Source: an uncultured Candidatus Binatia bacterium (GTDB lineage: Bacteria > Desulfobacterota > Binatia > UBA9968 > CAXXLF01). From it: 64,000 nucleotides of DNA. The notes beneath the pieces are model-generated. The model ran no database searches and was not told the DNA's origin. It saw only the letters and a list, made by a program, of their open reading frames with translations. The stretch covers positions 1,536,001-1,600,000 of the forward strand of contig OZ244621.1 in the NCBI GenBank assembly GCA_965218425.1, given 5' to 3'. Every line of letters starts with the position of its first letter. Within the stretch, counting starts at the first letter, position 1. Made by a program: the position numbers and the translations under genes. Positions 7,069-45,558 of the stretch are shown here, piece by piece.

Positions 7069-7268
7069 CAACGGTATCTAAGCAGGCCCAAACCAGACGG
7101 CCTGTTTGTAGGCAATCTCAGTAAGGCTGAGCGAGACAGTATAGTTGGCCGTGCGGTGGATGGTTACGGGTACAGCCGGACAGAGGTGGCCGATTATCTA
7201 GGCCTGCACTACGCTACGGTCAGCCGGTCGGCAAACAAGGAGTGATACAAGATACATGACGTGCCCCC
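7069..7268 (+). pseudogene. 3' remnant of a RAYT (REP-associated Y1 transposase) with C-terminal HTH and terminal motif
   Basis: QRYLSRP...ERDSIVGRAVDGYGYSRTEVADYLGLHYATVSRSANKE* followed by CAAGATACATGACGTGCCCCC. Confidence 0.7.
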
Positions 7269-7303
7269 GGTGTTACTATTCGCCGGACGCCTGCGACGGT
7301 GCG

Positions 7304-8038
7304 TTAGGGCAATGAGAACCGGATGCTGGCGCCGAGGTGATGCCCTCCGTATTCACTGTCGAAGTTGCGGTCGCTCAACTTACCCTTCAGGGCTGGATCC
7401 TGGGTGCCGAAGTACCGATAGTCCAGGCTCAGGGTCGTGGCCGGGGTGATCTCGTACCCGATCCCCCCTCCCACCTGATACGCGAACACGGCGTCGTTGT
7501 CGTCGAGAAGTTTCCGGCCGGTAGTCGGAGACGTCGACTCACCCGAAAGGAAGGCAACTCCGACACCGCCGCCGACATAGGGTTTCCAGCCGGATCCTAC
7601 ATCGATGTCGTAGTACCCATTGAACATGAGGGTAACCGTCGAGACAGCGCCACTGGTGTCCTGTTTTCCCAACAGGCTTTGACGGGCCTGAGGGTTGTCC
7701 CGCTGGGAGGGCGGTAGGAGGTCGATGAGGGCGCCGGGACTCTTGACGTTAATTTTATCCAAGTCATTCCTACGGTAGCCGACTTCACCTTCGACTCGTA
7801 AGCCATTGGTAAAAGCGTACCCGACCGCGCCGTTCACGGCGAAACCCGTATCGCTGCTGCTGTCGACGTCGAGTGCGGGATAGTCGTCTACGGCTCGGCG
7901 GGTGTTGCTGGCGCCGTTCGGAAAGGTGGCCCCACCACCGACCCCAATATACACCCCGCCATCGGCCCCTACCTCACCAACCGTCAGCAAGCCTGCTACG
8001 GCGAGGGAAAAGATCAATGCAAAGAATGTTCTCCGCAT
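7304..8038 (-). CDS. Outer membrane beta-barrel protein (OmpW/Msp4-like)
   Basis: Signal peptide, YIGVGGG, GLRVEGEVGYRRN, KPYVGGGVG, AYQVGGG; AGGAGG RBS. Confidence 0.85.
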   Translation of the reverse strand: MRRTFFALIFSLAVAGLLTVGEVGADGGVYIGVGGGATFPNGASNTRRAVDDYPALDVDSSSDTGFAVNGAVGYAFTNGLRVEGEVGYRRNDLDKINVKSPGALIDLLPPSQRDNPQARQSLLGKQDTSGAVSTVTLMFNGYYDIDVGSGWKPYVGGGVGVAFLSGESTSPTTGRKLLDDNDAVFAYQVGGGIGYEITPATTLSLDYRYFGTQDPALKGKLSDRNFDSEYGGHHLGASIRFSLP

Positions 8039-8331
8039 ACCCGACCTCCTTGATCTCAAACGGCCAGAGGCACAGGCACCCTCACACATAAAGGGGCACC
8101 TGACCCCGTGGTTAGTATAACCAACTGTTATCTCAGCAATCCGGTGTAATCAAGAGATCGTAGACCTGCCGCCGGATCAGCGCCGCTGATTAGGATGGAC
8201 TCGCGTGCGTTGAGGAAAGGTTCGGTTCGCACGTAGCCCAGCCGTGCCAGCTCCGCCACGCCCGCCGCCGTCGCCCGATCCAATTCATTTCGCTCGTTTT
8301 CATTCATTTTATTTTATCCTGTTCGGCCTTT

Positions 8332-8640
8332 CTACAAAACCTTCTCGGCCTGGTGAGCACGACAAGCGTCGTCAGGCGCGGCTATTTCCACAAGCTCCGC
8401 CTTGGTCCGCGCGTTACGCTCCGCCCGCGCCGCATCGTCCGGTGCCTGGCCCGGTATGTAGTCTCCGCCGCCGGTCACATTTCCATCCCCGCCGCGCGAG
8501 TCTTCCCTATTTTGCCGCCCCTTCCGCCCGAGAGCCGGCGCGAGGGCCCTGCGCATGGCCTCCTTCCCGCGGGCGCGGACCAAGTGGTTGAAGTCGGTCA
8601 TGCCCTTGGCCCTTTCCTCCGCCGTGAACGGCGGCTCAGC
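8332..8640 (-). pseudogene. C-terminal fragment of a plasmid-type TOPRIM primase (TraC-like)
   Basis: PFTAEERAKGMTDFNHLVRARGKEAMRRAL resembles the TOPRIM C-terminal TDFNDL motif; no N-terminal part. Confidence 0.4.
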
Positions 8641-8672
8641 GGAGTCTCTGCGTCAGCGGGCGGCAAACATGT

Positions 8673-9950
8673 TCAGCCCGCTTTTGCCCGGGCCCGCTCT
8701 TTGCCAGCTTCCTCGTCAACCCGACGCAATAGCACGAAGCCGGCAACGAACAAGACCACGACTACGGCCATGCCGGCCCGTTGCGAGGTGAAAATGCGCG
8801 TCAATTCGCCCAGCAGGAACGGACCCAGAAAGGCGGTGGCCTTGCCCGAGAAGGCGAACAGGCCGTAGAACTCGTTCCCTTTATCGGGCGGCACAAAGCG
8901 GCCCATTAGGGAACGGCTGGCCGCCTGGTTGGGTCCCGCGCACAGGCCGATAAGGATGCCGGCGGCCCAAAAAAGCATCCGCTCCTGGGTGAGCAGGGCC
9001 AGCACGGAGGCCGCAACAAAGCCGATCAAGCTGATCTGGATTGTACGCTTGCCACCCAGCCAATCGTCGACAAAGCCCAGGGTAAAGGCGCCGATGCCGG
9101 CGGCCATATTGAGAACGAGGCCAAAGACCAGGAGATCCTTAAAGGTGAAGCCAAAGGTGCCGGCCGCGTAAATGCCCCCAAAGGCAAAAACCGTGTTCAG
9201 GCCGTCGTTGTAGAGCAGCCGGGCCACCAATAGGCGGAAAACATCGGGGTAGCTCCGCACTTGGCGGAAGGTCGAAACCAACTGGCCGAAGGAGACGGAC
9301 AAGAGCCGTCGAGAGGTGGCGAAGGGCGGCGGTTTTTCCTTGACCCACAAAAACAGCGGCAGGCTGAACAGAGCAAACCAGCAGGCCACCAACAGGTTGG
9401 TCGCCCTGATGTGCTGATGGTCTTCCCTGCCGAAACCGAGCCATGGAATCTCGGCATCGACAAAGCCCACCAGGGCCAGGCCCAGAGCCGCCAGACCGCC
9501 GACGTAGCCCAGAGCCCAGCCGTAGCCCGAAATGCGCCCTATTCTGTCCGGCGGTGCGACGTCGGGCAGAAAGGCATTGTAGAACACCAGGCCCATCTCG
9601 AAGGCGATATTGCCCACCGTGAACCAGAGCAGCGCTTTGACGACCTGGCCGGGCAGGGCGGTGTAGAGAAGGGTCGAGCCCACTATGGCCAGAAACGTGA
9701 AAAAACCGAGGAAGCGTTTGCGATAGCCGCCGCGGTCGGCTAGGGCGCCCAACAGCGGCGATAACAAGGCCACGGCTATGGCGCTCAGGCTGACGCTTTT
9801 GGACCACAGCCAGGTGCCAGTCACCTCGTCGGGGGCGATGACCTTGATGAAGAAAGCAGCGTAGATGAAGGTGACGACAAGGGTCGTGAAGGCCGAATTG
9901 GCAAAGTCATAAAAGCACCAGGCGACGATGGCGCGGCGGTTTGTCGGCAT
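8673..9950 (-). CDS. MFS transporter, UMF1/Atg22-like family
   Basis: AWCFYDFANSAF, FYNAFLPD, GRISGYGWALGY, QAASRSLM. Confidence 0.9.
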   Translation of the reverse strand: MPTNRRAIVAWCFYDFANSAFTTLVVTFIYAAFFIKVIAPDEVTGTWLWSKSVSLSAIAVALLSPLLGALADRGGYRKRFLGFFTFLAIVGSTLLYTALPGQVVKALLWFTVGNIAFEMGLVFYNAFLPDVAPPDRIGRISGYGWALGYVGGLAALGLALVGFVDAEIPWLGFGREDHQHIRATNLLVACWFALFSLPLFLWVKEKPPPFATSRRLLSVSFGQLVSTFRQVRSYPDVFRLLVARLLYNDGLNTVFAFGGIYAAGTFGFTFKDLLVFGLVLNMAAGIGAFTLGFVDDWLGGKRTIQISLIGFVAASVLALLTQERMLFWAAGILIGLCAGPNQAASRSLMGRFVPPDKGNEFYGLFAFSGKATAFLGPFLLGELTRIFTSQRAGMAVVVVLFVAGFVLLRRVDEEAGKERARAKAG

Positions 9951-10247
9951 AGGGGCTCCGAGGGCTGCAGCGACGCTCAGGCATGCTCAGGCACGCCAGA
10001 CCCCCTGCCGCTCCACGCAATCCTGGTTTGATTCGAGCTGCGTTGGCGAGGCCATGGTGCGTGTTGCAAACTCTCTTGGAATGAGATGAAATAAAATAGC
10101 ACATGGATAGCACGGCGGAGCGCCCGAAGCTAGATGCGAAAGCATATACCCGTGAGAATACCGGCGGGAGAGACTCTGGATACCGCGCCGGTTCATGGAG
10201 CTGGACGGATGGGAGAGCTTTGGGTGACTTCATGGGAGGAGGGATTC

Positions 10248-10718
10248 ATGAATCGCGGAAAAAACATCGGGCGTGTGGTGATTCCGATGCTTTTCATCAT
10301 AGCCTTGACGGTCGCCGTGAGCACGGCGTTGGCCATTGAGCCGGTGTTCTCGACCTATCTCGGCGGCGCCATCCGGGGATATGACCCCGTGGCATATTTC
10401 ACCGAGGGCCGGCCGGTTCGGGGAAAGAGCGCCCATCGGCTCGAGTGGATGGGGGCGACCTGGTACTTTGCCAGCGCTAAGAATCGGGAATCGTTCGAGG
10501 CGAAGCCGGAAAAGTACGCCCCCCGGTACGGCGGCTACTGCGCCTGGGCGGTAAGCCAGGGGTATACCGCCAGCACCGACCCGGACGCCTGGAGTATCGT
10601 GGAGGGCGCGCTCTACCTCAACTACAGCCTGGGTGTCAAGAAGCAGTGGGAGCAGGACATCCCCGGCAACATCGCCAAAGCGGACGTGAACTGGCCCAAG
10701 ATCCTGCAACGGAAATAA
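10248..10718 (+). CDS. YHS domain-containing secreted protein
   Basis: Signal peptide, AIRGYDPVAYF, PEKYAPRYGGYCAWAV, GALYLNY, IAKADVNWP. Confidence 0.9.
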   Translation: MNRGKNIGRVVIPMLFIIALTVAVSTALAIEPVFSTYLGGAIRGYDPVAYFTEGRPVRGKSAHRLEWMGATWYFASAKNRESFEAKPEKYAPRYGGYCAWAVSQGYTASTDPDAWSIVEGALYLNYSLGVKKQWEQDIPGNIAKADVNWPKILQRK

Positions 10719-11399
10719 GCGGCTTCGGCATTGCACGGACCCTTTCCGCGCTTTTGTCAATCCCGGCTTGCCCGGGCTCTACAGGGTCCACAGGATAATG
10801 CAACCAGCCCCGGGGAGTCATCGGCGAGTCTGAGACGGGAATAGGACCATGCGATACTCGAAGCTCGATGCGAAGGATTACGCGTGCGGGAACTGGAAGG
10901 TGTGCCACGGAAGATGAAATTCATCTAAAAAACCATGTCAGGTTTACGGAGGCATCCCGTGTTTGTTCGTGTCTCACGCGCTTGTTCGCGCTTCGGAAAT
11001 GTCGTAAGCCCCACCCTCCAGGAGCCAAGGCATGAGCGCGCGGGGGCTGCCGAGCCCATCGCCCTGTGGTTGACCGCCGCCGCGTTCATACCGTAGTGGA
11101 CGTGACATTCATGGCACTCACTACGGCCAAGTTATCGCCGTTGAAATATTGCGTAAACCGAAAAACATGGACTTGACCTCTCAAACTGGCATCCTCCAGG
11201 ATGACCGGTACGTCAAAGTGGCCCTGTAAGGACCGGTGTCGACCTGGGCTGAAAGGCGATTTTCAGCCATTCCTGCTAGTCTCTCTCCGGCGTCTTGCCA
11301 CTCCAGACCAACGGAACCGATAACTTTTCATGGACCGCAGCGCTCTTTCCCGACGTCGCCCTTGAGGAAGTCAAGTGATGTCCGAGTTGGACGGCAGAG

Positions 11400-24489: not shown

Positions 24490-24560
24490 GGTTACAAAAA
24501 GGGGACGTTGCGTCTTTTATGGCTTTTCATTTCACCGGGGTTGTCACTCGGATCGCGCCT

Positions 24561-24575
24561 CATCGGGGTCAAGTC
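24561..24575 (+). repeat. Left arm of REP-like target hairpin
   Basis: CATCGGGGTCAAGTC; 14/15 inverted match to 44237-44251. Confidence 0.75.
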
Positions 24576-24968
24576 GCTCCGAGCTGTTGCCCAAACATCG
24601 GTTAAATAGCGCAATAGATCCAACCGAACTATAACCCGCCGTGTTTGTTTCTTCAAACCCCCGCCGCTTGCTGCAAGGCCATGGGATGGCGGCGGATCAT
24701 CCGGGGCCGTCCTTAAGCCATCTCACCAGCGCCATGATGGACAATCAGACCTTCAAAGCCCTGGGGGGGGAGAGAAAGGGGGAGCATGCGAATTTGGAGG
24801 AACAACCCCATACAAAGGAGATTGCCCATGCACTGCCGCGCTCAAGCATGGGCGCGACACGCATCCGTCTGCCTGTCTCAATAATCTTCTTCGCCCCGAT
24901 ACGGAAAGTTTACCCACGGCGTGAGAGTCTCGGTTCAGATCGGAATTGATCGCATCCGCAGGGAAAGG

Positions 24969-27063: not shown

Positions 27064-27077
27064 GTTGCTGCCTCCTG

Positions 27078-30751: not shown

Positions 30752-30791
30752 CTGTTGATAATTGGGATGTGAACTGTAATTTAGGCTATCA

Positions 30792-31178
30792 ATGTCACGG
30801 CCATTACGCATTGAATATCGGGGTGCAGTCCATCGTTTGATGAAACGAGGATCTGCCCGCCGAAAGGCGTTCCTAAGCAGGGGCGACTATGGGGAATGTC
30901 TGAAGGCGGTTTCACAGGCACACGATCTATGGGGGGTACAAGATCTGGTGAGGAGCCGCAGAGGAGGGGAGAACGAGGGGAGGAAAGTTGGGATGTGCCT
31001 AATGAGAGGCTAAGCGATATGACGTTGGTGGAAGTAGCCAGGGAGTTTGGAGTGAGGAGTTGGGGTGCGGCGGGCCGGGCGTGCCACGGGATTCAATTGA
31101 AGCGTGAGGCGGATAGAAGATTTCGGAGGCGGCTGGAGAATCCGGAAGATGTTGTTCGTCAACAATAGATTTGATCCC
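30792..31178 (+). pseudogene. Internally deleted RAYT transposase
   Basis: N-terminal MSRPLRIEYRGAVHRLMKRGSARR joined to a DnaA-C-like HTH (ENEGRKVGM...MTLVEVAREFGV); HUH core missing; ends ATTTGATCCC. Confidence 0.8.
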
Positions 31179-31184
31179 TTTGTT

Positions 31185-31250
31185 TTAGCGCTCTCTCAAT
31201 AACTTTTGGGAAGGCGAGATGAATCATGTCAAATGTCAAGGTCTGACCCC
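31185..31250 (+). repeat. Repeat B 3' part, copy 3
   Basis: TTAGCGCTCTCTCAATAACTTTTGGGAAGGCGAGATGAATCATGTCAAATGTCAAGGTCTGACCCC. Confidence 0.88.
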
Positions 31251-32749: not shown

Positions 32750-33027
32750 CCGGGGTCAGGCAACATGAAAAAGGGGGCAAGCTCCAGCAGGACGGCGGTT
32801 GTAACGGCCATTAAACCTGAAAGGAGCAGATCCCATGCCTTACGTCGGGATAGACTATCACAAACGATACGCCCGGCTAAATGCCATCGACGAGAAAGAA
32901 CCGCATCCATGCTTTAGAACACCGCGTCCAAATGGACAGGACATTCCAAGGGAGAATTGGCGCAATACAAGCCGGAATCCGAAAGGGAAGGAAACCCAAA
33001 ATAGCAAGAAGGCAAGCCTGATACCGG
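32750..33027 (+). mobile_element. Miniature element A, copy 2
   Basis: CCGGGGTCAGGC...MPYVGIDYHKRYARLNAIDEK...GCCTGATACCGG (imperfect terminal IR). Confidence 0.78.
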
Positions 33028-33071: not shown

Positions 33072-36000
33072 TCACGTCTTCGATCGTGGAAAGAGGGGCA
33101 TCCACTGGGCACCTCCCTTGCCGGACCCGTGCAAGATGGGCAACGAGTTGTTTGGACAATTGCGTGAAAACGTGAGTAAAAGTCCTTGGTCCTTGAACCC
33201 TAAGGGGGTGCGCTTTTGCACTCGGACTCCGAGGTCTCTAAGCAGAGTCTTAGCAGCGCTCATCTCCTCTTTCGACTCCCAGAAGCCAATGGAGCTAGTG
33301 AACGCAAAATGCTTGCTCTCCAGTGTTTCGCAAATCTCCAGGTCGGCATTTGGCATGGATTTGTTCAAATGCGCTCTGACTCGATACTCGCCCTCCACGG
33401 TGCTACAAAGTACGATCACTGACAAAGGTACTTCCGTTCCAACCTTTACCTGTTGGAACAAGTCCGAAAGTTCCGTTAGCTTCTCCACAAGGTTGTGTCC
33501 CGTACCAATCATATCATCTACGATGACCAAGCCGATATGTTTCCCGTCGTACTTGTTACCGACGACGTCATCAAGTTGAAGAGGTGTGACCACGTTCTCT
33601 GAACGAATCTCATTCGTGCGCGCATAGAGTTCTGCATAGAGTGCGCCACTCTTTCCAGGTCCATCGACGTAGGAGACCAAGATATCGTCCCGATGTTGTG
33701 AACGACTCTTTTGCACAGGCACCGGCAGTTTGCCACGGATCCATCTATGCGCCTCCGAAAGTTTCTTTCTGGTCTCGAGGTCACTAACAAAACGAACATT
33801 TTGCAGCAACTTGAGCAACCACCTCCGTTCAATGTTTGACTCTACTTGTTCAATCCATGCTCTTATCTTGTCTTCTGTGATCTGGCGTCCCTGGTAAAGG
33901 TCCCATTTATTTGCAACATCGACGATTTCCGTTGCTCGGACGTACGCTATGTCTTCACGATGTTGTTTAGCCTCAGCTAGTTCGTCACCCAACTGGTCAC
34001 TAACAAGCATTGAAAACCCACTTTCCCTTAGCCAAACGGCGAACAAATCAACGGCAGGCAGATACGCGCCGTTCTTCTCTCTAAACACTCTACGTCGGCA
34101 TAAGTCTTCCAAGAGGGGCAAGACTTCAGTAGTATTGAATACGCCAGAAAGTACATTTGCGCCAATGGACTCGTGAGTCAACGGCTTCTTTGATCGTGCG
34201 GTGCGTGCCCAGGCCATAAACAAGCGACACCGCTTAATCGAAACAATCTCAATGTCATTAGAGTCACCGCGTATGCCGTCTCTCCAGTAGTGCGCGAATG
34301 CATTTGTGTCGAGAGTTGCAACGACTTGTTCCGCGGCCTTCTCGACTTCAGCACTTGATATTTCAGCGTCCTTGGTCTCAACTGCGCACTCATAGACTTT
34401 TGCACATAGCATCTTGGTAAAATACGGGTGCCCGTCCGTAAGTTCGAACAATTTGCGGAGGGCAGGTTCGTGCAATTTAATCACATTCTCCACAGGAGTC
34501 TGGATCAAGGCGCGATAATCTCCCCACTCAGTCTGTAGACTGAAGCTGTCAAGTGATTCGCGATTAAATTTATTTAGTTTCTCTCCTTGAGATGCCATCA
34601 CATAAGGCATCCGTTCAGCGCCTACCAGCACGAATGCGATGTTACTCTTGGACGAAAGCGTTCGCAGATTTAGGAAGAACGTGTTCGCTAACTCTCCGTA
34701 CCTGTACAGAGACTCGTTGATTTCGTCGAACTCATCTAAAATCACAACAAAACGCGATTCCGGCTTTTGAGTTCTTAGTTGGTCTAGAAGACTGTTTAGA
34801 GGTATTAGAGACGATGAAAAGTCCTCCGATAGCCAACCAGCGGACTGTGGCAAATTTTCCGCGAGAAATCTCTCCAATTGTGTTCCGAGCTCCTTCAACG
34901 TGTCCTCGCCCGACGAATGCCGGATTTCACCACACTCAAGATATAGAACGTTATAGTCACCTGGATGTATGTTATTTTTGATTTTAGTCTCGACGGCACG
35001 AGCAAGAGAGCTCTTTCCTACGCGCTTTTGACCGGTGATGTAACAGGACTGCATCGAGTCGGAAGCCAAGCGGCGTAGAATTCTTTGCACAGCGTCTTTA
35101 CGCCCGTAAAACTCCTGGTCATGAGCGACTTCGAGGCTATAAGGCTGTTGGCGCGAGAGGTCATCCCAATTGAGGTCGTTACGCTGGCCCTTAGCCGTCA
35201 CAGAGAATGTTCGGGTATGATTCGAGGGGTCACCGATCACGCCCCACTGGATTTCTACTTCTAGCTCCAGGCTTTCACGTGGCTCGGTCACGTTGACGAT
35301 CAGTGTCAGCACAAACGAGCCGGGTTCTACATCGCCTAAGCTCGTCTCCTCGCTTTGTATCTCGCAGTGGTCTGCAACACAGGTAGCCCGAACATTTTGT
35401 GCCACGCCTGGGCCTTCGTTGGTAAGTGGTATAAAAATCTGAATCTCAGAGTCGGTTACGTGAAGTGGATATTTCTTTTCGATTTCAAACGGACTGACAG
35501 GCACAGAAATTATGCAAGCAAACTTATCAGCCATGGTTTCTTGCTGCGCCCGTGCAGCAGTCTGGGCTTGTAGAAGGAAAGGAAGCATGTACTCTTGCAC
35601 AATGAAGGTCGGAGTATTCGCGTATTGATTTAGTTCGTCAGCGATGCTCTCTAGCAGACACTGCATGCTTGCCTGTAGCTTGTGTCCCTGAGACTGCGCA
35701 AGACCATCAACAAGTTTGAGTAGGCTACTAACAGATGACCGCACAGGGTCGAATCCAAAAGCGTTCAGATAGCTCTTCGTCGGTCCGTGATTAAGTTCCG
35801 TCAGAATTGTCTGACGGCGACCCCATAAATCCTGTACGCTAGTGAACGGTTGCTGTAGATAACTCAAATGTTTACAAGCTGTATGGTGTATCGTTTTAGC
35901 CCATTGGATCTTTTTGTGATTTGGAGCATTCTTGTCCGGGAAAACCTTCGAGATCAGGTCAGGGCAACCTTCTTCGATTAGCCGCACAATGTGGCGTCGA

Positions 36001-36281
36001 CCTTTATTGATGTCGTCCGTAGTCAGAACGTCCGTACAACTGACCAGTCGAATGGAGATTAAACCCATGTCTCTCTTCATGTTATCGTTGCAACCTTTCG
36101 CGATTGCTTCGAATGTGTCGGCCAGAGAAAGGGAAGAGTCTGGCGCGATCTGAGCTAGATTCTGGAGCGAATCGCTAATGATGCGACGTGCGTTGGAAAG
36201 GTTGGAAGGATCGGTATTCAATTCGTAGAGTACAGATTCGATTCGAAGAATATCGTCATGCAAGTCATTCATTTTGTACAC
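33072..36281 (-). CDS. Large STAND-like P-loop ATPase with C-terminal phosphoribosyltransferase-like domain
   Basis: FYGR, Walker A GQKRVGKS, Walker B VVILDEFD, TDGHPY; C-terminal GKSG, VIVDDMIGTG, PLGF, PNNSLPIL, WMPLFPR. Confidence 0.8.
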   Translation of the reverse strand: MYKMNDLHDDILRIESVLYELNTDPSNLSNARRIISDSLQNLAQIAPDSSLSLADTFEAIAKGCNDNMKRDMGLISIRLVSCTDVLTTDDINKGRRHIVRLIEEGCPDLISKVFPDKNAPNHKKIQWAKTIHHTACKHLSYLQQPFTSVQDLWGRRQTILTELNHGPTKSYLNAFGFDPVRSSVSSLLKLVDGLAQSQGHKLQASMQCLLESIADELNQYANTPTFIVQEYMLPFLLQAQTAARAQQETMADKFACIISVPVSPFEIEKKYPLHVTDSEIQIFIPLTNEGPGVAQNVRATCVADHCEIQSEETSLGDVEPGSFVLTLIVNVTEPRESLELEVEIQWGVIGDPSNHTRTFSVTAKGQRNDLNWDDLSRQQPYSLEVAHDQEFYGRKDAVQRILRRLASDSMQSCYITGQKRVGKSSLARAVETKIKNNIHPGDYNVLYLECGEIRHSSGEDTLKELGTQLERFLAENLPQSAGWLSEDFSSSLIPLNSLLDQLRTQKPESRFVVILDEFDEINESLYRYGELANTFFLNLRTLSSKSNIAFVLVGAERMPYVMASQGEKLNKFNRESLDSFSLQTEWGDYRALIQTPVENVIKLHEPALRKLFELTDGHPYFTKMLCAKVYECAVETKDAEISSAEVEKAAEQVVATLDTNAFAHYWRDGIRGDSNDIEIVSIKRCRLFMAWARTARSKKPLTHESIGANVLSGVFNTTEVLPLLEDLCRRRVFREKNGAYLPAVDLFAVWLRESGFSMLVSDQLGDELAEAKQHREDIAYVRATEIVDVANKWDLYQGRQITEDKIRAWIEQVESNIERRWLLKLLQNVRFVSDLETRKKLSEAHRWIRGKLPVPVQKSRSQHRDDILVSYVDGPGKSGALYAELYARTNEIRSENVVTPLQLDDVVGNKYDGKHIGLVIVDDMIGTGHNLVEKLTELSDLFQQVKVGTEVPLSVIVLCSTVEGEYRVRAHLNKSMPNADLEICETLESKHFAFTSSIGFWESKEEMSAAKTLLRDLGVRVQKRTPLGFKDQGLLLTFSRNCPNNSLPILHGSGKGGAQWMPLFPRSKT

Positions 36282-36421
36282 ATCCTCATTCCTAATCTTC
36301 CCTCTTAGCCTTCTTGACTAACAAACGATTTGACGGGTTCAATTGGCCTATGAGCGGCTTGCACATTGGCTGCTTCCGATCCGTATCGTCCATCGGACTC
36401 TGGCGTTTTCAAGGTAAAACA

Positions 36422-38065
36422 TCAAGAGCCAGTATTACCAGACATTATGGGTCCAGCCCCGAGCGCAGCAGCGAGAGGTTCAATGCGTTTTCTGAGTTTC
36501 TTGGCCAGAGCCTCGTCACCCTGAACTCGGGAGATCAACGTTTGCTCATACGTCTTTCTACCTTTAAGTTCGAGGGCTTCAGTAATAGCTTTAAAAACGC
36601 TGCTCTCGCGGAGCGGATAGCGAGCAACGAGTTCGTCCAGTTTCTTCTCAGCAACAAGTTTCTTGAAGCGCACCAACTCATCTTGATAGGGAGAATCGGC
36701 AGACAGGTCGAATTTTGGCTTGGTTTTGATACATTTCCAATCGGGGACTTGCCGTAGTATCATATCACGTACTCGACCTTCGCAACGCCGCGCCGCCATC
36801 TTTTCGGCAAGGCTGTCCTGATTCAGGGCATCAAGTGCTTTCCGTGTCGCAGACTTTATCATATCGTTTGCGTCGCAACCCAGTGACTCTGCTTGTCGGT
36901 GGGCGACCGCGGCAATGGCATCTGAGCAATAGTAGAGTGCTTCGACCGAGTACACGTCCAAGGCAAACACGCCCTCCTTTGCAAGCTCCTGTATTTTGTC
37001 TTCCGCTTGATTGTCCCCATCGATAAGCCCAAACGCCTCGACGTGATGGAGATATCGGGATCCTCGCAGGCCGCTCACCGCTCTATGGACATCGATGCAA
37101 CTTCCCTTCGGCACCACCGAGATATCCGGAAATAGCGTGTGATAAAGTGGAAGGTCCAAACTTTGGGGCTCGCCTTCAACAAAGAGAATTCTTTTCCGGG
37201 AACCCAAGATAGCCCGTTTAAGATCCTCCGGCAGGTGTGCGTTCGCTTCAAGGAGTTTGACATCCCAAGCTTTTGCTGCGTCGCCGCTCCATTCGCATGA
37301 GCGAACCATCAGGACGCGTGCTTCCGGGTTGGCGACCGGCAGGTCGACCTCATGCGTTGAGACGACAAATGCGCAATCCGTGCGACGATCAAACAGTGCC
37401 GACAGAAATGGCTCGATGATGGACCGATGAAGATGCCGTTCCGGCTCATCAATCAACAACACGGTTCCCGGATCGACGGTTAGCATGGTGGCCGCTATTA
37501 TTGCGGCGTTCCGCTCCCCATCCGACATCTGAGCGATACTGTACGGCGCACTGCCGTCTCGATGCTGCGCGAGTATCTCTTCGTCATTGGAATTTTTGAG
37601 AGTGACCGCCAGCGTTCCGAGCGCGAGCAATTCGTTGAGTTGATCAAACGGAGAGGGCGATTTATCAAATTCCGCCTGTGCCTGTGATGGGTTTCGAGCA
37701 GCATGATGCTTGATGATGGACCGAGCCCGGGTGTTCTCCTTGGCAACCAAGTCAAATAGAACGGCCGATTGTCTTTCTTGTGCGTTATCATCTCGCCAAC
37801 GAGATTGGTTTTGTATTTCGCGCGGCGTGTTACTCTGATCAAACCATTTGCGCTGCTGCGGCGTGAGGTTGATGCTCCCGGACTGAAACCATGTCTGTCG
37901 ATGCGCCGAAATGCGCCTGATTTTCTTACCTGGATTCGATGAAACAAGGTGTTGAATCAATGCCGATTTTCCAGAGCCATTGGCGCCAACAATGAAGAGC
38001 CGGTCGTTGTCATCGAGAGATATTTGGAGCGGTTGGCCTGAAATTTGAGGAATATTCCAATTCAT
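36422..38065 (-). CDS. ABC-type ATPase fused to a TOPRIM (DUF4435-like) domain
   Basis: GANGSGKS, MSDGER, LLIDEPERHLH, STH; then ILFVEGE and GLIDGD. Confidence 0.8.
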   Translation of the reverse strand: MNWNIPQISGQPLQISLDDNDRLFIVGANGSGKSALIQHLVSSNPGKKIRRISAHRQTWFQSGSINLTPQQRKWFDQSNTPREIQNQSRWRDDNAQERQSAVLFDLVAKENTRARSIIKHHAARNPSQAQAEFDKSPSPFDQLNELLALGTLAVTLKNSNDEEILAQHRDGSAPYSIAQMSDGERNAAIIAATMLTVDPGTVLLIDEPERHLHRSIIEPFLSALFDRRTDCAFVVSTHEVDLPVANPEARVLMVRSCEWSGDAAKAWDVKLLEANAHLPEDLKRAILGSRKRILFVEGEPQSLDLPLYHTLFPDISVVPKGSCIDVHRAVSGLRGSRYLHHVEAFGLIDGDNQAEDKIQELAKEGVFALDVYSVEALYYCSDAIAAVAHRQAESLGCDANDMIKSATRKALDALNQDSLAEKMAARRCEGRVRDMILRQVPDWKCIKTKPKFDLSADSPYQDELVRFKKLVAEKKLDELVARYPLRESSVFKAITEALELKGRKTYEQTLISRVQGDEALAKKLRKRIEPLAAALGAGPIMSGNTGS

Positions 38066-38084
38066 CAGATATTCTCCTAGTGGA

Positions 38085-40604
38085 TTAACCGCCCCACACT
38101 CGCCCGATGGCCGCGCTGATCTTCTTCTCGAAACGTTCGATCAACTCGCGGTTGGCGGCGACGAGGGCTTGCTCGGCTTCGATTTCGGCGACGATTGCTT
38201 GCTGCGTGTCAGGAGGCGGCAGAGGTATTTCTGTATGGAATAGTTGGGATCTGTTGATCTTTGGAATGCTCGCACGCTCGTAGTGGTGGCAAATACGCTG
38301 GTTAAATGATTCTGACAACATGTATACGGACAAATAGTGAATTTTAATCTTCGAACTGTTCGTTATCAGCGGATAGATGTCGGAACTGCAATAGCCATGA
38401 ATGTCAACAATTCCGAGTTTGTTCAGGTAAGGTCGGATTTTACTGTACAAAAGGCGCTCGCCGGAGAACTCGTAGACTGGTCCGCTGACTCCTTGATTCT
38501 GAGCTGTCTCCACTTTTAAAAATTTACCGGTATGTGATTCAATGCTGTCAGAGCCGAAGTAAGGTAGTGTAGGATTCACTGTCTTCGTAATTGATCCACC
38601 CATTGTGCAGATCTTTCCCAACTCCACCATCGGCCACTCGGGGTCAATTGCGATATGCGGCCGGTAGTTGTCTACCACCGCCCGCGCCCCGTCTATCACA
38701 CGCTGGTAGCCCTCTATCTCCGCCACGATCTCCCGCTGCACCTCCGGCGGGGGCAGGGGGATTTCCAGATTTGCGAACGACTGCCAGCCTATACGAGGAA
38801 GCTGTGCACCTTTGAGTTGGCTCAAGACTTCATCATTAAAGTGACCACTTCGAAAGACATAGGCGTACAAGGCTGGTAAGACGCGTCCATCCAAGGATCG
38901 GACAACGAATATATCAGTCGAGCAGATGCCCTTCCGATCCGAGAGCCACACCTTGTTGAGGTTCGGCCGTAACTTTCCATAGAGAATATCGCCGGGACAG
39001 AAGACATTCTTAAGACTCTTGATCCCTGCTGGATTATCGGTCGCGACATTCCCCGATAGTTGCCCGCTGGTCTGAGTGATGTTTTCCAGCCCTATGCAAT
39101 TCACGGGACCACGGAGCGACATCGGCAAGACAGTTTCCTCCGCCTTCTTGAATACATCTCTCACTCTCACGGAAGGCCACTCGGATAGGATGGAGTGTTC
39201 AGTCCGATACCTTTCCCCGCTCAGGTTGTAGTCCCCGCCCGCCGCTATCTTCTCCTTCTCGGCGATCAGACCGAATGCGGGTCGATAGTCGTCCGTTGTG
39301 TACCGCGCCCCAGGTTCCGCTACACGATCCGTCGGCGTCGGCTGAATTGCGTCCACGGATTCGCCCGCCCGCAACCGGCGCAGATATTCGCCAAGCTCGG
39401 CCCGCACGTGAGGCAGGTCGTTCCTGTCGATGGGCCGGCGCTGGGCGCCGAGGTCGTAGCCGTCGTTTGCCACCTTGAAGAAACCTATGCGGCCGGTCTT
39501 CTTCGCCAGCGACTTGTCGAGGATCAGGATCGAGGTCTTGACGCCGGAGTAGGGATTGAACACCCCGGCGGGCAGCGAGACGACGGCGACGAGGCACTCC
39601 TCCACCAGCATCCTGCGCAGTCCCTTGTGGGCGGTCTGGCTCTGGAAGACGATGCCTTCGGGCACGATGATGCCGGCGCGGCCGGAAGGCGTCAGGTGCT
39701 CGGCCATGTAGTCCACGAACAGCACCTCGCTCCGCTTGGACTGGACGGAGAAGCGGTTGTGCGGCCTGATGCCGCCCTTGGGCGACATGAACGGAGGGTT
39801 GGCGAGGATCACGTCGGCGTACTCGTTCCAGCGGTCCTGGCTGGTGAGGGTGTCGTATTCGGATATGTGCGGATCGGCGAAGCCGTGCAGGTACAGGTTC
39901 ACCAGCGACAGGCGCACCATGTCGGGCGAGATGTCGTAGCCGTTGAAGTCGGCGGCAAGCTTCCCTTTTTCGTCGGGTGTCAGCGTGCTGTGCCTCTCGT
40001 CGTCGGTGTTGGCTTCGAGGATGTGCTTGTAGGACGAGATCAGGAATCCGGCGGTGCCGCAGGCGGGGTCGAGTACGGCCTCGTCCTTCTTCGGGTCGAC
40101 GACGGCGACGATGAAGTCGATGATATGGCGCGGGGTGCGGAACTGTCCGGCGTCGCCCTGCGAGCCGAGGACGGACAGCAGGTACTCGAAGGCGTCGCCG
40201 AGCCGTTCGGAGTGGTCGTAGGCGAACTCGTCGATGACCTTGAGAAAGGCGCGCAGGGTCTCGGGGTCGCGGTAGGGCAGGAAGGCGTTCTTGAAGATCT
40301 CGCGGAACAGCGGCGGGATGCCGGGGTTCTCCGGCATCCTGGCGATAGCCTCGGCGTAGAGGTCGAGAACCTCGTGTCCCCCCAGCCCCGAGCGCATCAG
40401 CTTGGCCCAGCCGTAGCGGGCGAACCCGCCGGCGAAAAATCTCCGCGCGCCCCCGAGTTCCTCGCTCCCGGCGTCCATGTCGTCCATGAACTTGTAGATC
40501 AGCGCGATGGTGATCTGCTCGACCTGGCTCTTGGGGTCGGGCACCTTGCCCACGAGAACGTCGCGGGCGGTGTCGATGCGGCGCTTGGTGTCGGTGTCCA
40601 GCAT
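38085..40604 (-). CDS. Type I R-M N6-adenine methyltransferase fused to the specificity subunit (HsdM-HsdS)
   Basis: GQFRTPRH, DPACGTAGFL, NPPF, then two TRDs each followed by IPLPP...Q..IV. Confidence 0.9.
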   Translation of the reverse strand: MLDTDTKRRIDTARDVLVGKVPDPKSQVEQITIALIYKFMDDMDAGSEELGGARRFFAGGFARYGWAKLMRSGLGGHEVLDLYAEAIARMPENPGIPPLFREIFKNAFLPYRDPETLRAFLKVIDEFAYDHSERLGDAFEYLLSVLGSQGDAGQFRTPRHIIDFIVAVVDPKKDEAVLDPACGTAGFLISSYKHILEANTDDERHSTLTPDEKGKLAADFNGYDISPDMVRLSLVNLYLHGFADPHISEYDTLTSQDRWNEYADVILANPPFMSPKGGIRPHNRFSVQSKRSEVLFVDYMAEHLTPSGRAGIIVPEGIVFQSQTAHKGLRRMLVEECLVAVVSLPAGVFNPYSGVKTSILILDKSLAKKTGRIGFFKVANDGYDLGAQRRPIDRNDLPHVRAELGEYLRRLRAGESVDAIQPTPTDRVAEPGARYTTDDYRPAFGLIAEKEKIAAGGDYNLSGERYRTEHSILSEWPSVRVRDVFKKAEETVLPMSLRGPVNCIGLENITQTSGQLSGNVATDNPAGIKSLKNVFCPGDILYGKLRPNLNKVWLSDRKGICSTDIFVVRSLDGRVLPALYAYVFRSGHFNDEVLSQLKGAQLPRIGWQSFANLEIPLPPPEVQREIVAEIEGYQRVIDGARAVVDNYRPHIAIDPEWPMVELGKICTMGGSITKTVNPTLPYFGSDSIESHTGKFLKVETAQNQGVSGPVYEFSGERLLYSKIRPYLNKLGIVDIHGYCSSDIYPLITNSSKIKIHYLSVYMLSESFNQRICHHYERASIPKINRSQLFHTEIPLPPPDTQQAIVAEIEAEQALVAANRELIERFEKKISAAIGRVWGG

Positions 40605-40613
40605 GGAGAGACT

Positions 40614-43142
40614 CTATGGGGCGAACTGGTTCAGGGAGACGTAATCCTTGACGTATTCCGGAATGAGACTGCGGTATTTCTCCGGCACGGCGCGGAAGTC
40701 GCGGGTGGAGAAAACCGGGTTGGTTGCCAGGTCGGTGAAGCGCTTGCCGTCGATGATCTCGCGGATCCGGTTGCTGGCGGCATAAGCCTTGAAGTAGCTC
40801 TTGATGGCCGGGATGGACCTGAACTCTTCGGGCTTGTAGTCGGCGACGAACTTGGCGAACTCCTCTTCCAGCAGCTCGTCCTTGGACTTGAAGCGGGGGA
40901 TAAGGCCGAAGACCTTCTCCAGGATCTCGCGCAAGGTCAGGCGGCGGTCCACGGCCGCGGCCCGGCGCAGCTTGGCGAGGGTGTAGTACTCCTCGGGCTT
41001 GTCGAAGACCTCGCGGTTGACGTAGTCGATGACCCGGTCCCACTGGCCGGCTTCGATGGCCGTCGCGATGATTTCGTCCTTACGCACGGCGTCTTCGAAC
41101 TTCTCGAAGAACATGCGGTCGATCTTCATCCCTTCGAATCCGATTTCTTCCTCCTTGATGAGCGACAGGATGTCGGGTCCCAAGTGCTCGTATGCGCCGC
41201 CGACGACCACGGGGCCATCGCCCCCGTCGCCGTTGCCGTCCCCGGGCGGCGGCAGCGTCAGCACCTCGTCGTAGTTGAACTCGGTCTCGAAGTACTCGCA
41301 GTTGCCGAAGAAATCGAAGAGCTTGAAGGCCGTCTTGTCCGGCCTGGCGACGGCGGCCTTGAGGCTGTCGTCGAAAAGCTGTTCGAGGAAGTCGTGCCTG
41401 CGGGTGCCGCGTCCCTTGATCTGGATGAAGTCGGTGGGTGAGAAGATGGGCCGGAACATGCCGAGATTGAGGATATCGGTGCAGTCGTAGCCGGTGGTCA
41501 TCATGCCGACCGTCACGCAGATACGGGCCTTGCCGGTCCTGTAGCCGGGCAGGAAGTTGCCCGAGCCGAGCAGGTTGTTGTTGGCGAAGTTGATGGTGAG
41601 CCGTTGGGCGTCCGGTATCTCGGAGGTGACCTGCACGGCGAAGTCCGACTGGTACTTGCCGGGGAACATGCGGTCGGCCATCCGGTTGAGGATCTGCGCC
41701 AGCTTGGCCGCGTGGTTCTGGCTGACGGCGAAGACGATGGATTTGCCGATCTCGCCGCTGACGGGGTCGCGCAGCGCATTCTCGAGAAAGGTCTTGCAGA
41801 AGAGCCGGTTGGTGGCTTCGGAAAAGAAGCGCTTCTCGAACTCGCGCTGCCCGTACGCCTCCTGCTCATCCTCGCCGCCGTTATCGGTGAACGGGACGAT
41901 AAAGCCTTCTTGGGAGAGGAGTCGGGTGGTTACTTCCGTACGCGCGTCCACCACGGTCGGGTTGACCAGAAAACCGTCTTTCACGCCGTCGAGCAGTGAG
42001 TAGCGAAAGGTCGGCTCACCGCTCTCGCAGCCGAAGGTGCGGTAGGTGTCCATCAGCAGCCGGCGCTCGGCTTCGCGCGGGTCCGTCGCCGCGGGGACGG
42101 CATGGTCGAAGCCCTTCAGGTAGTCGCGGGGCGTCGCGGTGAGGCCGAGCTTGTAGCCGACGAAGTAATCGAACACCGCCCGGGCGTTGCCGCCGATGGA
42201 GCGGTGCGCTTCATCCGAGATGACGAGGTCGAAGTCGGTGGGCGAGAAGAGCTTTTGGTACTTGTTGTTGAACAGCAGGGACTGCACGGTGGCGACGACG
42301 ATCTCCGCGCGACGCCAGTCGTCCCGCTTCTCCTTGTAGATGACCGTCTGGAAGTCGGCGGAAAGCAGCGCGGTGAAGACCTTGCGGGCCTGGTCCTCCA
42401 GCTCCAGGCGGTCCACCAGGAAAAGCGCGCGGCGGGCGTTGCGGGAGCGCAGGAACAGCTTGACGACGGCGGCGGCCGTGAGCGTCTTGCCCGTGCCGGT
42501 GGCCATCTCGAACAGGAACCGGTCCCCGCCGTCCTTTACGCTGCGTTGAAGGGCATGGACGGCTTTAAGCTGATAAGGGCGCAGAAAGCGCAGCTTGTCG
42601 GCCTGGATAAAGCCGGGGCGCTCGGCTTCGTTCTTCCAGGCCGCCTCGGAGGCGTAGTTCGGACGCTGGGTCAGGACGATATAGTCACCGGCGACCGGCT
42701 CATCGATCAAGCGCTTCGGGTCGGGCGTGACCTTTCGGTAGCCGTCCGCCGAGTCGGGCGCAGGGAACGAGGTGATGACGTAGGGGTTGCCGCGTTCGAG
42801 ATCCCAAAAGTAGTGCAGGTTGCCGTTCGAGAGGATCACGAAGCGGCAGTTCTGCGACCGGGCGTACTTGCGGGCCTGCTCTTTACCCGCCAGCGGACTC
42901 TTGTCCTCGGCCTTGGCCTCAAGAACGATGAGCGGGAATCCCTTGCCGTCGAGCAGCAGGAAGTCGATGAAACCCTTGGAGGTCTTCTCGAAATCGTGAC
43001 CCAGCGCGTCGAGGTCGGATTGCTCGATCGTGACGCTTAGTTCGAGGCAGACGTTGGCGGGGCCGTCTCCCTCCGGGAAGAAACGCCAGCCGGCTGCTTC
43101 CAGCAGCTTGTTGATCTTGATACGCGCTGCGGCTTCGCTCAT
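40614..43142 (-). CDS. hsdR: Type I restriction endonuclease subunit R
   Basis: IDFLL...VLEAK nuclease motif, RPYQ, MATGTGKT, DEAHRS, TATP, QIKGRGTR. Confidence 0.9.
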   Translation of the reverse strand: MSEAAARIKINKLLEAAGWRFFPEGDGPANVCLELSVTIEQSDLDALGHDFEKTSKGFIDFLLLDGKGFPLIVLEAKAEDKSPLAGKEQARKYARSQNCRFVILSNGNLHYFWDLERGNPYVITSFPAPDSADGYRKVTPDPKRLIDEPVAGDYIVLTQRPNYASEAAWKNEAERPGFIQADKLRFLRPYQLKAVHALQRSVKDGGDRFLFEMATGTGKTLTAAAVVKLFLRSRNARRALFLVDRLELEDQARKVFTALLSADFQTVIYKEKRDDWRRAEIVVATVQSLLFNNKYQKLFSPTDFDLVISDEAHRSIGGNARAVFDYFVGYKLGLTATPRDYLKGFDHAVPAATDPREAERRLLMDTYRTFGCESGEPTFRYSLLDGVKDGFLVNPTVVDARTEVTTRLLSQEGFIVPFTDNGGEDEQEAYGQREFEKRFFSEATNRLFCKTFLENALRDPVSGEIGKSIVFAVSQNHAAKLAQILNRMADRMFPGKYQSDFAVQVTSEIPDAQRLTINFANNNLLGSGNFLPGYRTGKARICVTVGMMTTGYDCTDILNLGMFRPIFSPTDFIQIKGRGTRRHDFLEQLFDDSLKAAVARPDKTAFKLFDFFGNCEYFETEFNYDEVLTLPPPGDGNGDGGDGPVVVGGAYEHLGPDILSLIKEEEIGFEGMKIDRMFFEKFEDAVRKDEIIATAIEAGQWDRVIDYVNREVFDKPEEYYTLAKLRRAAAVDRRLTLREILEKVFGLIPRFKSKDELLEEEFAKFVADYKPEEFRSIPAIKSYFKAYAASNRIREIIDGKRFTDLATNPVFSTRDFRAVPEKYRSLIPEYVKDYVSLNQFAP

Positions 43143-43243
43143 GGGCACGAAGCCTCTTTGCCGACGCCTCGGGTCGAGGCCGGCGCTTCTCGCAATACCC
43201 TTTTCCCCATGAACAAATCCCTCTGCTTACCGGAGCTTATCGC

Positions 43244-43740: not shown

Positions 43741-43885
43741 CCGGGGTCAGGCAACATGAAAAAGGGGTCAAGCTCCAGCAAGATGGCGGTTGTACCGGCC
43801 GTCAAACCTGAAAGGAGAAGACCCCATGCTTTACGTCGGGTTAGACTGTCACAAACGATGCGCCCGGGTAAATGCCATCGACGAG
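43741..43885 (+). mobile_element. Miniature element A, copy 3 (5' half)
   Basis: CCGGGGTCAGGCAACATG...ATGCTTTACGTCGGGTTAGAC. Confidence 0.78.
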
Positions 43886-44039: not shown

Positions 44040-44229
44040 TGCATGCAGGAAGTCGATACGGACTGAAACGGTCACGGTGGCGTGGTCGTCGGCGGGCACC
44101 GATTCGGGATTGCTTGACAGCGATAGTGCAGAACATCGAGCTGTTGATTGATCATGCACGGCCAAAACCCGGAGCGGTTATGACTCGGTTGGATCTATTG
44201 CGCTATTTAACCGACGCTTGGGCAACAGC
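44040..44229 (+). pseudogene. IS1182 transposase 3' remnant with its right end
   Basis: SRYGLKRSRWRG...IRDCLTAIVQNIELL, then TTGGGCAACAGC. Confidence 0.72.
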
Positions 44230-44236
44230 CCGACAA

Positions 44237-44251
44237 GACGTGACCCCGATG
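44237..44251 (-). repeat. Right arm of REP-like target hairpin
   Basis: GACGTGACCCCGATG. Confidence 0.75.
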
Positions 44252-44403
44252 CGTAGAGCTTGCAGCCGAATCGGGTCGGCAGACCTTTAAGATAAGAATC
44301 GTAAGGTGATGTTCCCGGTCATCGTCATCGCGGAAGATGAGCCGGCGGCGGATACGAAGTTCCATTGTAGTTCCGAATGGGAGGGGGACGGTCGGATGAT
44401 TCG

Positions 44404-45189
44404 TCAGAGATGGCGGTTCAGGAAATCTATGGTCCGCTGGTGGGCGAGACGTGCCGCCGGCGCATCGAACGCCGCCCCGTCCTCGACGTCAAAACGGTCG
44501 CCGGCGCCTTTGTAGATGTGGACTTCCGTATTCTTATTCCGCGCCATAACTCGTTCGGCGAGCTCCTTCACGGCGTCCAGATCGCTGTCGGCCGCTTTTT
44601 CCGGATAGTGCGCGATAAGCGGCGCTTCCATTTTGTCCAGCCGGTAGGCGGCCGGGGCCGTGATGGCCCCGCTATCGCTATAGTAGACAACGGATGCGCC
44701 GATGTCGAACCCGGCCACCGCCATGTGAAATGACCAGGCGGCCCCGTATCCCCAGCCTGCTACCGCGACGCGCCCGCCATCGACCTGAGGCAGGGAGCGG
44801 AGGTAGGAGAGTCCGCTTCTCATGTTTCTAAACACCACACGGTGATTGCTTTTCTTTATCTGCTCGCCAATGACGGGTCGGACCTCTTCTGCCGAGGCAT
44901 AGGTCTTGCCGTCGAAAGCGTCCAGCGCCAAAGTGACGAACCCGGCGGCGGCAAAGGCCCTCGCCCTTTTCCGCATCTCGTTATTCAGCCCCCCGAAATC
45001 ATGCATGAGGATCAACGTCGGCGCTTTCCCGGCGTTGTCGGGCGTAGCGAGAAACCCCCTTACGTCCCCGTAATAGGCAACCGTTTTTTCCTGAACCGCA
45101 TGGGCACCGAACGGCGCAAGGAGCGTAGCCGCAACGGCCAGCGCCGCCTTGCAGATCAGCCTTCGTGCTCGATGTTTCATCGAATGCAT
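44404..45189 (-). CDS. Secreted dienelactone hydrolase-family protein, catalytic residues substituted
   Basis: HDFGGLN, AGFVTLALD, RVAVAGWGYGA, VVYY, HIYKGAGDRF. Confidence 0.8.
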   Translation of the reverse strand: MHSMKHRARRLICKAALAVAATLLAPFGAHAVQEKTVAYYGDVRGFLATPDNAGKAPTLILMHDFGGLNNEMRKRARAFAAAGFVTLALDAFDGKTYASAEEVRPVIGEQIKKSNHRVVFRNMRSGLSYLRSLPQVDGGRVAVAGWGYGAAWSFHMAVAGFDIGASVVYYSDSGAITAPAAYRLDKMEAPLIAHYPEKAADSDLDAVKELAERVMARNKNTEVHIYKGAGDRFDVEDGAAFDAPAARLAHQRTIDFLNRHL

Positions 45190-45355
45190 GCTCGTTCCCT
45201 CCAGTCGTCACATGTTCGCAGCACCCCGCCGTGCGTCTGGCCCGAACACCTCGGTTTCCCACCCATGCTACGATAATAGACTCTATCCGGTTCCATGCCG
45301 CCCGGTTCAGCAACCGGACCCGCGTCATCGGCGCCTCCCCAGGCGGTCCCGCCGC

Positions 45356-45558
45356 TACACCGAAGCGAGAGAGGTGGCGAACTATCTAACGGGGTGGTAC
45401 AGTTCAATGGGGCGAGTGGAGACGGGCGGGCCGGCCGGGCTGGATCATGGAACGGTAAGCAATGCGGTCGGCCGAGCCGCCGAGAGCAAGGACCGGGGCC
45501 TGGGCGCGGCTTTGAACGAAGCCGTGGCAGAAACCGAGAATCCATAGACACGGGCCCC
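45356..45558 (+). pseudogene. RAYT C-terminal HTH remnant
   Basis: EAREVANYL...GLDHGTVSNAVGR...* followed by ACACGGGCCCC (degenerate end motif). Confidence 0.5.

Follow-up and report, generated by a model that had tools for sequence, protein, structure and literature searches.

Terminal inverted repeats of TIRYT-type Y1 transposases at the joints of a gene-fragment mosaic in a Candidatus Binatia genome

What joins unrelated pieces of DNA next to a short recurring motif in a genome island, and where relative to that motif does the new DNA begin? This question is raised by a 64,000-nucleotide stretch of an uncultured Candidatus Binatia bacterium (assembly GCA_965218425.1, contig OZ244621.1, positions 1,536,001 to 1,600,000 of the forward strand; hereafter the window), in which the heptamer TGACCCC recurs between positions 7069 and 45558 of a gene-fragment mosaic. 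A sequence-only reading had interpreted the heptamer as the end of RAYT-derived minis and the region as a candidate capture platform driven by an HUH nuclease. Comparison of the source genome (G000) with a relative of the same genus (G001), one of the same family (G002) and further loci (L numbers) identified the motifs as terminal inverted repeats (TIRs, GGGGWSAS) of Y1/HUH transposases with a helix-turn-helix (HTH) domain, the TIRYT family, whose elements are TIRtrons. The account that we favour, with moderate confidence, is that enzymes encoded by intact genes elsewhere in the genome cut approximately 5 nt outside GACCCC and attach a single end to new DNA, in most cases at a pyrimidine.

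The ten exact heptamers and three degenerate copies of the sequence-only reading were all recovered. Genome-wide, the bare heptamer occurred 847 times, which is at background and showed no enrichment relative to a Markov expectation of approximately 325-440 copies per strand. Exact copies numbered 15 in 7069-45558 (7.3 expected, p = 0.008) and 8 in 24480-33040 (1.6 expected, p = 3e-4). The signal resided in longer end sequences of 20-28 nt rather than in the heptamer. These end sequences comprised types A, R, B, C, D, F and I and a GGGGAC type, with 20 ends placed in the window; in the B end, the last 9 bases were invariant in 21 of 21 ends. In G000, 140 of 156 TIR ends fell into 12 clusters, or islands, which together spanned 259 kb. 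The ends were not REP (repetitive extragenic palindromic) hairpins, at which the sequence-only reading had RAYTs nick DNA: all ten folded strands were no more stable than shuffled sequences (best z -1.6).

The genome contained four Y1 matches. Two were intact genes, L002 (325 aa) and L003 (312 aa); the other two were an IS200-like fragment and a gene with a frameshift. Both intact genes scored above the Y1_Tnp cut-off, retained the HUH motif and the tyrosine, and lay outside the window. These findings agreed with the earlier proposals of an HTH-bearing RAYT in trans and of no intact copy in the window. Residues H60, H62 and Y119 were invariant in 12 of 12 aligned proteins. A C-terminal HTH resembling Bac_DnaA_C was matched below the Pfam cut-off in L002 (E 1e-5) and L003 (E 4e-4) and above it in L065 and L070. 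Perfect inverted B ends, identical to the TIR of module B in the window, flanked the L003 gene, while the TIRs of L002 and L004 were slightly degenerate. GGGGWSAS TIRs also flanked most intact genes in relatives, and in G001 and in genomes G003 and G004 the intact genes bore ends of type C, I or R or of the GGGGAC type. On the basis of domain layout, length and motif, the enzymes were assigned to TIRYT, or TnpA-Y1 subclass 2.1. Approximately 50 3' fragments of the L002 gene were dispersed over the genome, and the Y1 remnants in the window matched intact proteins of relatives at 45-73% identity. Queried against plasmids at E 1e-30, the L003 protein returned one record. Separately, the right TIR of the intact L003 element (G000:C1:1404076-1405066) was seen to provide an in-frame ATG to a modA-like gene without a start of its own.

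Past a loosely conserved tail, the DNA outside the ends differed between copies. A TIR-free copy of the flank began 3-8 nt outside the motif at 32 of 163 ends; among 489 shifted sites there were 6 such starts, and among 754 other TGACCCC copies there were 3. When loci of relatives were added and copies were collapsed, a source was found for 54 of 222 ends, which corresponded to 37 independent joints. Eighteen of these began at +3 to +6 outside GACCCC and none at +7 or between -5 and +2, while a control set of 661 shifted sites gave 3 of 33 in the same register. The source base at +6 was C or T in 16 of the 18 joints, and among 147 ends, 118 had a pyrimidine at +6 (compared with a background of 0.48, p ~1e-15; 0.56 at other TGACCCC copies). 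The ends belong to intact TIRtrons, and the outside DNA, unrelated from copy to copy, starts 3-6 nt out where it can be traced. Across the islands, 120 of 476 breakpoint clusters (25%; 15 of 51 in the window) coincided with ends, against a chance level of 1.8%. The enrichment of breakpoints at the motif on which the sequence-only reading had staked its case was thereby borne out, by the joint register, the shifted-site controls and these cluster counts.

The same joints could also have been left by miniature TIR elements that inserted in the usual two-ended way into a tolerant island, where decay and host recombination then acted, with +5 being the true end of the element. Approximately 20 two-ended A minis in the genome and short doublets in other phyla fit this explanation, as do the 75% of breakpoints that were not located at TIRs and a mismatch pattern that fits recombination between minis. 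However, none of 106 source hits had both flanks contiguous in one source, a negative result that weighs little because few flanks were traceable (the 54 of 222 given above). More difficult to reconcile with two-ended insertion are ends joined at two nearby points or to their own tips. The B end at 26695 was joined to the higA-XRE region 69 nt from the joint of the copy at G000:2586220, and 22 tandem duplications were found in which ends had been joined to their own tips, with a shared tail of 5 nt in 10 cases (range 4-11). Flanks also changed at orthologous minis. A clean empty site for the L003 TIRtron was not found, as G001 carried 1.6 kb of other DNA there and 83% identity was too low for mapping. 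Taken together, two-ended insertion is a possible but unlikely explanation.

Several observations weigh against one-ended joining as well. Nineteen of the 37 traceable joints began elsewhere than at +3 to +6, and in 10 of the 18 joints in register 1-3 tail bases also matched the source, so that cutting may occur anywhere between +2 and +5. The 356 remaining breakpoint clusters, among them 36 of the window's 51, lay away from TIRs, although some of these were alignment drop-offs or inner joints of minis. The island was present in G002, yet this genome had no Y1 gene above the cut-off. Outside Binatia, a +6 pyrimidine occurred at 62 of 104 ends (p = 0.07), with 13 of 14 in a single Nitrospinota genome; a universal +6 pyrimidine rule was unsupported there. 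Furthermore, the joints are known from assembled contigs and not from raw reads, and the activity of the enzymes is predicted from their sequences.

Clustering of ends and movement of blocks between relatives were evident from genome comparisons. Blocks 7127-8314/8380, 9930/10088-11069 and 43741-46573/55308 were common to G001 and G002 at 93-98% identity, in another order, while core genes were 81-90% identical in G001 and 65-70% in G002. G001 also held 24971-26471 at 96%. Four ends of shared blocks lay 0-4 nt outside an A end; the others were IS (insertion sequence) insertions or 6-bp microhomology. The A end at 43743 had a different outer partner in G001 and G002, although identity was 98% over the inner 2.8-11.5 kb. 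Mismatches were denser in A than in cargo (12 in 148 nt versus 7 in ~455, and 7 in 143 versus 15 in ~615), and block swaps are therefore probably crossovers inside minis rather than new enzyme events. Recombination between minis, which had been offered as an alternative to enzyme action, is on these grounds likely. The island of G001 contained 53483-55308 at 98% identity, whereas its own orthologue was 81-84% identical, which suggests transfer from a G000-like donor into G001.

Exchange of this kind would also be expected if the host maintained an integron-like platform, at whose dedicated sites a TIRYT enzyme inserts and reorders useful cassettes. Gaps between ends were indeed filled by defence, toxin-antitoxin and surface genes, blocks crossed genera at identities well above those of core genes (93-98% versus 65-70%), and the terminal bases of the B end were invariant. 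However, genes, IS ends and TIRYT genes were cut at arbitrary points, ends faced both ways, no single entry site was apparent, at least five end types were mixed, no enzyme was adjacent, and shared blocks also ended at IS insertions or at 6-bp microhomology. Such a platform is quite improbable. The integron-like arrays of the sequence-only reading did not survive the observation of cut genes, both orientations and three-quarters of island breakpoints away from TIRs, and nothing showed a host-dedicated capture function. A bolder version, in which TIRYTs are active one-ended HUH recombinases and the lineage keeps several as an integrase-free engine of capture and shuffling, would have any DNA grafted 5 nt outside GGGGTC ends, twelve islands gathering defence, toxin-antitoxin and surface genes and handing them on between genera, and IS1182 and IS110 parasitising the ends; we consider it rather unlikely. 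The islands are better described as a by-product hotspot that is able to pass cargo between genera than as an ordered cassette array.

An assembly chimera, or chance matches to the motif, is a further alternative. The background frequency of the bare heptamer and the copy at 8101, discussed below, are in line with chance matches. However, the same modules and cargo recurred in G001 and G002, and 24565, 26246, 32752, 33025, 44247 and 45557 were bridged with 0 mismatches by contigs whose runs belong to as many as three studies, one of which may be the source sample. Among the contig pieces listed, the joints at 26696, 27631, 31250 and 43743 were not bridged by 31 letters. The probability of this explanation, of which the sequence-only reading had itself named the chimera as a ground for refutation, is close to nil.

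Insertion sequences that target the motif, namely the DDE enzyme of IS1182 or the bridge recombinase of IS110, could in principle have made the seams in place of the Y1 enzyme. With the motif allowed at most 2 mismatches and a distance of 13-18 nt outward, IS1182 was found to end exactly 15 nt inside the TIR tip at 12 of 24 G000 ends and in 10 of 16 rows from relatives. Four-bp duplications accompanied three G001 copies, and the flanks of G000 copies were mismatched. For IS110, the A motif headed a full-length, 351-aa copy in L229, which shared the leader of element A including both GGGGTCA motifs. The first motif of element A may be the own leader of IS110 or a TIR that IS110 entered, and the single locus L229 fits either. 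The position of IS1182 at 15 nt and the motif-bearing IS110 leader indicate that two IS families home to the ends. As makers of the outside joints, these families are nevertheless very improbable, as IS joints lay inside the TIR and not 3-6 nt outside, the outside register was also found in end types without IS, and no full-length copy of the IS110 of element A was found in G000. A second GGGGTCA was located 21 nt inside element A (24992, 32773 and 43764) and also in the L229 leader; it could be a putative bridge-RNA target guide aimed at TIRs. Near position 17630 of L051 in G001, which corresponds to 55294-55308 of the window, an IS1182 end lay 15 nt from a chance TIR-like sequence in a core ABC permease gene.

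One-ended joining by TIRYT enzymes may be pictured as follows. By analogy with HUH chemistry, as covered in the available text of PMC8266576 and PMC3333891, the HTH-bearing enzyme would bind the TIR and nick approximately 5 nt outside it. One end would be held as a 5'-phosphotyrosine and transferred to another 3'-OH. Action on one end could delete neighbouring DNA, duplicate a short stretch of the end itself, cut genes and leave captured pieces or grafts. Host homologous recombination between the many minis of 70-300 bp would then reorder whole blocks, and IS1182 and an IS110 would insert at ends or carry them, adding seams.

At the left of the mosaic, the three 3' HTH remnants that had been reported to precede motifs were present at 7075-7245 (45% to L039), 31013-31168 (63% to L065) and 45413-45547 (51% to L016). 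The first belongs to a Y1 (TIRYT) remnant with a degenerate type F TIR end (7069..7268, forward strand), which matched the C-terminus of L039 and had two other copies in the genome; in G001 and G002 it was broken at 7127 and fused to an A end. The accessory region had been said to begin with a motif beside mazG. A degenerate end was indeed found there at 7248-7268, but homology with G001 already stopped at 7007, at a TIR-free inversion breakpoint. The 14-kb core block that ends at mazG was inverted relative to G001 and G002, with the island at one breakpoint (7007-7069; G000:C1:1527442-1528761), and no TIR was seen at the inversion breakpoints that flank this block. An outer-membrane beta-barrel gene (7304..8089, reverse strand) was carried as cargo within 7127-8314/8380, a block that was 93% identical in G001 and G002 in another context and continuous there through 8101. 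The isolated, single-copy TGACCCC at 8101..8107 (forward) is therefore not confirmed as a seam and is probably a chance match. Likewise, the copy at 26240 sits within a 226-bp repeat (26096-26322) with five copies in G001 at 92-93% identity and is not a shown seam. The claim that motifs mark DNA breakpoints held as a strong enrichment just outside ends but was not confirmed at these two positions. Further along, a cargo block with a YHS-domain gene (9930..11069, forward) was 98% identical in G001 and G002, where it terminated at an A end.

Further into the mosaic lie a TIR end of the GGGGACGTTGCG type (24501..24530, reverse), which matched the end of an intact gene in L059, and a TIR tip within which IS1182 ends after 15 nt (24565..24636, reverse). 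Element A (24971..25244, forward) consists of a GGGGTCAG end, an IS110 leader with the 22 codons that follow it, and the 3' end and TIR of an L002-type TIRYT; approximately 40 A ends occurred in the genome, and the element was found in 2 of 40 relatives (G001 and G002). The motifs at 24971, 32752 and 43743 each headed an IS110 5' fragment and not a RAYT remnant. As had been claimed for dsbA, an N-terminal ScsC/DsbA fragment (25245..25480, reverse; Pfam ScsC_N) was cut at the end of element A, at 25245. An L002-type 3' remnant with its TIR end (26327..26502, forward; 71% to L002 residues 275-323) was followed by module B with an L003-type TIR (26503..26695, forward), which was joined to the start of an XRE-like gene; this joint also occurred in a contig of run X20. 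An intact higBA toxin-antitoxin pair lay next to it (26767..27356, reverse; Pfam HigB-like, TIGR02607 HigA). A further L002-type end with module B (27397..27627, forward) was joined into an IS1182 terminus at 27631, which confirmed the fusion noted earlier. The IS1182-family element at 29723..30749 (reverse) was internally deleted (NF033551 partial), with four 99% identical copies elsewhere in the genome.

It was followed by an L065-type mini-TIRtron (30750..31178, forward) of 33 5' codons, a 3' HTH and a TIR end (73% and 63% to the L065 protein), and by a short module B (31184..31250, forward; second copy at G000:2585503) that was joined to a vapC-like 3' half (31255-31397). The half gene said to start after 31250 was thus present, as was a 22-codon gene start (26762-26697) cut at 26696 where an XRE antitoxin had been described, but neither the vapC nor the XRE label was backed by a Pfam or NCBIfam match, and both are tentative, being based on motif resemblance. 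No full-length source gene of the XRE-like, vapC-like or dsbA fragments was found in G000 or in the loci compared. A second element A (32752..33025, forward) adjoins the defence block, and beyond that block an A end with an IS110 5' fragment (43743..43885, forward) precedes an IS1182 end with its TIR tip at 44247 (44177..44346, forward) that was joined to the 5' portion of a TIRYT gene of L002 type. At both 24565 and 44241 the motif is a TIR tip, and IS1182 ends 15 nt further in. The last remnant, of L016/L070 type with a degenerate TIR end (45413..45558, forward), was 51% identical to L016 in protein and 69% in DNA. The earlier reading overlooked a fourth type of remnant, present four times and with degenerate ends (25244, 26502, 27433 and 33025), of which three copies were compared with the intact L002 protein (50-71%), as well as a fifth end type at 24501 and Y1 5' pieces at 30793-30890 and 44346-44251.

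The defence block (33072..43148, reverse; Pfam, PADLOC) lies between outward-pointing ends and contains four genes: a 1069-aa STAND-like ATPase fused to a PRTase-CE domain, an AriAB-like ATPase-DUF4435 fusion, and a type I restriction-modification system of a methyltransferase fused to the specificity subunit and HsdR. GC content was 47-53% over the first two of these genes (33-39 kb). Elsewhere in the window, a 661-aa open reading frame (13069-15054) joins squalene/phytoene synthase and polyprenyl synthase domains and is followed by DUF1302/LolA-like/MMPL and Lcp-like oxygenase genes. At 27974-29358, a nitrile hydratase alpha gene with a His-rich N-terminal extension of 170 residues and a short beta C-terminal gene were 90-92% identical in G001 and G002. 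Dispersed intergenic repeat families distinct from TIRs were located at 5860-5915, 27700-27876 and 57528-57764.

A pattern scan that returned 136 stretches, 80 of which had their flanks analysed, was used to assess the breadth of the system. The B end was found in Bacillota, Nitrospinota, Omnitrophota, Planctomycetota, Acidobacteriota and others, frequently as doublets of 45-85 bp, and the B module also occurred in Binatia rows of the scan. Tandem end duplications recurred in other phyla. In two Desulfoscipio genomes, four of five compared minis were present in both and differed immediately beyond an end, through indels or the replacement of a flank; the one empty site compared was not clean. 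Short TIR doublets at L139, L158, L161 and L169 in Desulfoscipio had outer tails that were identical for 4-9 nt, as if one flank had been copied from the other. Among 300 other genomes of the phylum, the exact 16-nt B end was present as a single copy in 5 and in many copies in none.

The joints predict a substrate, a cut position (approximately 5 nt outside GACCCC, before a pyrimidine) and a product, and two intact enzymes are available. One-ended joining, if true, would add to integrons, ISCR elements and DDE transposons a further way in which gene fragments are captured and islands remodelled, together with an end-joining activity that looks programmable. Should passive two-ended insertion and decay alone be true, the islands would be a dense case of known debris.

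Among known systems, integrons carry arrays of unrelated accessory, toxin-antitoxin and defence genes separated by repeats, and are defined by IntI, attC hairpins and polarity. The islands resemble them in their repeat-separated arrays of such genes. In contrast to integrons, they showed no IntI, attC hairpins or polarity and had imprecise boundaries; hairpins were lacking, ends lay on both strands and genes were cut. The absence of an integron integrase noted earlier was confirmed, as TIGR02249 matched nothing in G000 above its cut-off; the best score was 93 of 265 bits, and no match lay near the window. One-ended rolling-circle transposition of IS91/ISCR and capture by Helitrons likewise combine an HUH enzyme, one fixed end, gene-fragment capture and no target duplication. 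Unlike the Y2 HUH enzymes and oriIS/terIS asymmetry of IS91/ISCR, the elements described here have symmetric TIRs and a Y1 domain, without helicase or Y2 domain. Some IS elements reportedly insert at a fixed position in the REP of another element, whereas here an IS1182-family element occupies the TIR of a TIRYT element. The proposed process may be likened to that of REPtrons and to one-ended ISCR-type transposition.

The closest match is the TIRtron itself. The enzyme family and motif have already been described as TIRYT/TIRtron (Di Nocera et al., 2013, PMC3733652), which, as far as the available text of these papers goes, equals TnpA-Y1 subclass 2.1 (Quentin et al., 2018, PMC6006769) and RAYT group 1 (Bertels et al., 2017, PMC5581495), an equivalence stated in 10.1101/2020.03.09.984088. 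According to the accessible part of PMC6006769, only one group of Y1 enzymes is larger than subclass 2.1, which is present in 14.9% of strains. Described TIRtrons share a Y1/HUH gene with a C-terminal DnaA-like HTH between GGGGWSAS TIRs, which occur as singles, dimers and clusters; the available portions of these descriptions give neither a cut site nor a joining register and do not mention one-ended joints, islands of cargo or IS that target TIRs. In comparison, at least five TIR types were mixed here in 12 islands. In the literature searched, the joint register, one-ended joints, IS1182 targeting of TIRs and relevant work on Binatia islands were not found, nor was biochemistry of subclass 2.1 in its open-access part.

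REPtrons, or TnpA-REP with REP-BIME (Ton-Hoang et al., 2012, PMC3333891; Corneloup et al., 2021, PMC8266576), have a related enzyme. In the accessible text of these studies, TnpA-REP cuts outside its own site, joins via strand transfer and is proposed to sequester flanking genes or gene fragments (the last in PMC3333891). Unlike in REPtrons, neither a GTAG tag nor a palindromic hairpin was present here, and while TnpA-REP is described there as cutting at CT sites at variable distance, the offset in the islands was nearly fixed. The picocyanobacterial TnpA-REP associated with prochlorosin genes (Laurenceau et al., bioRxiv 10.1101/2020.03.09.984088) belongs to the same subclass 2.1. In that study many C-terminal fragments were found among variable genes and diversifying recombination was proposed; no TIR link was found and the causal claim was later withdrawn. 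In contrast to the picocyanobacterial case, TIR ends and joints are traceable here to the level of single bases, and the cargo is mixed.

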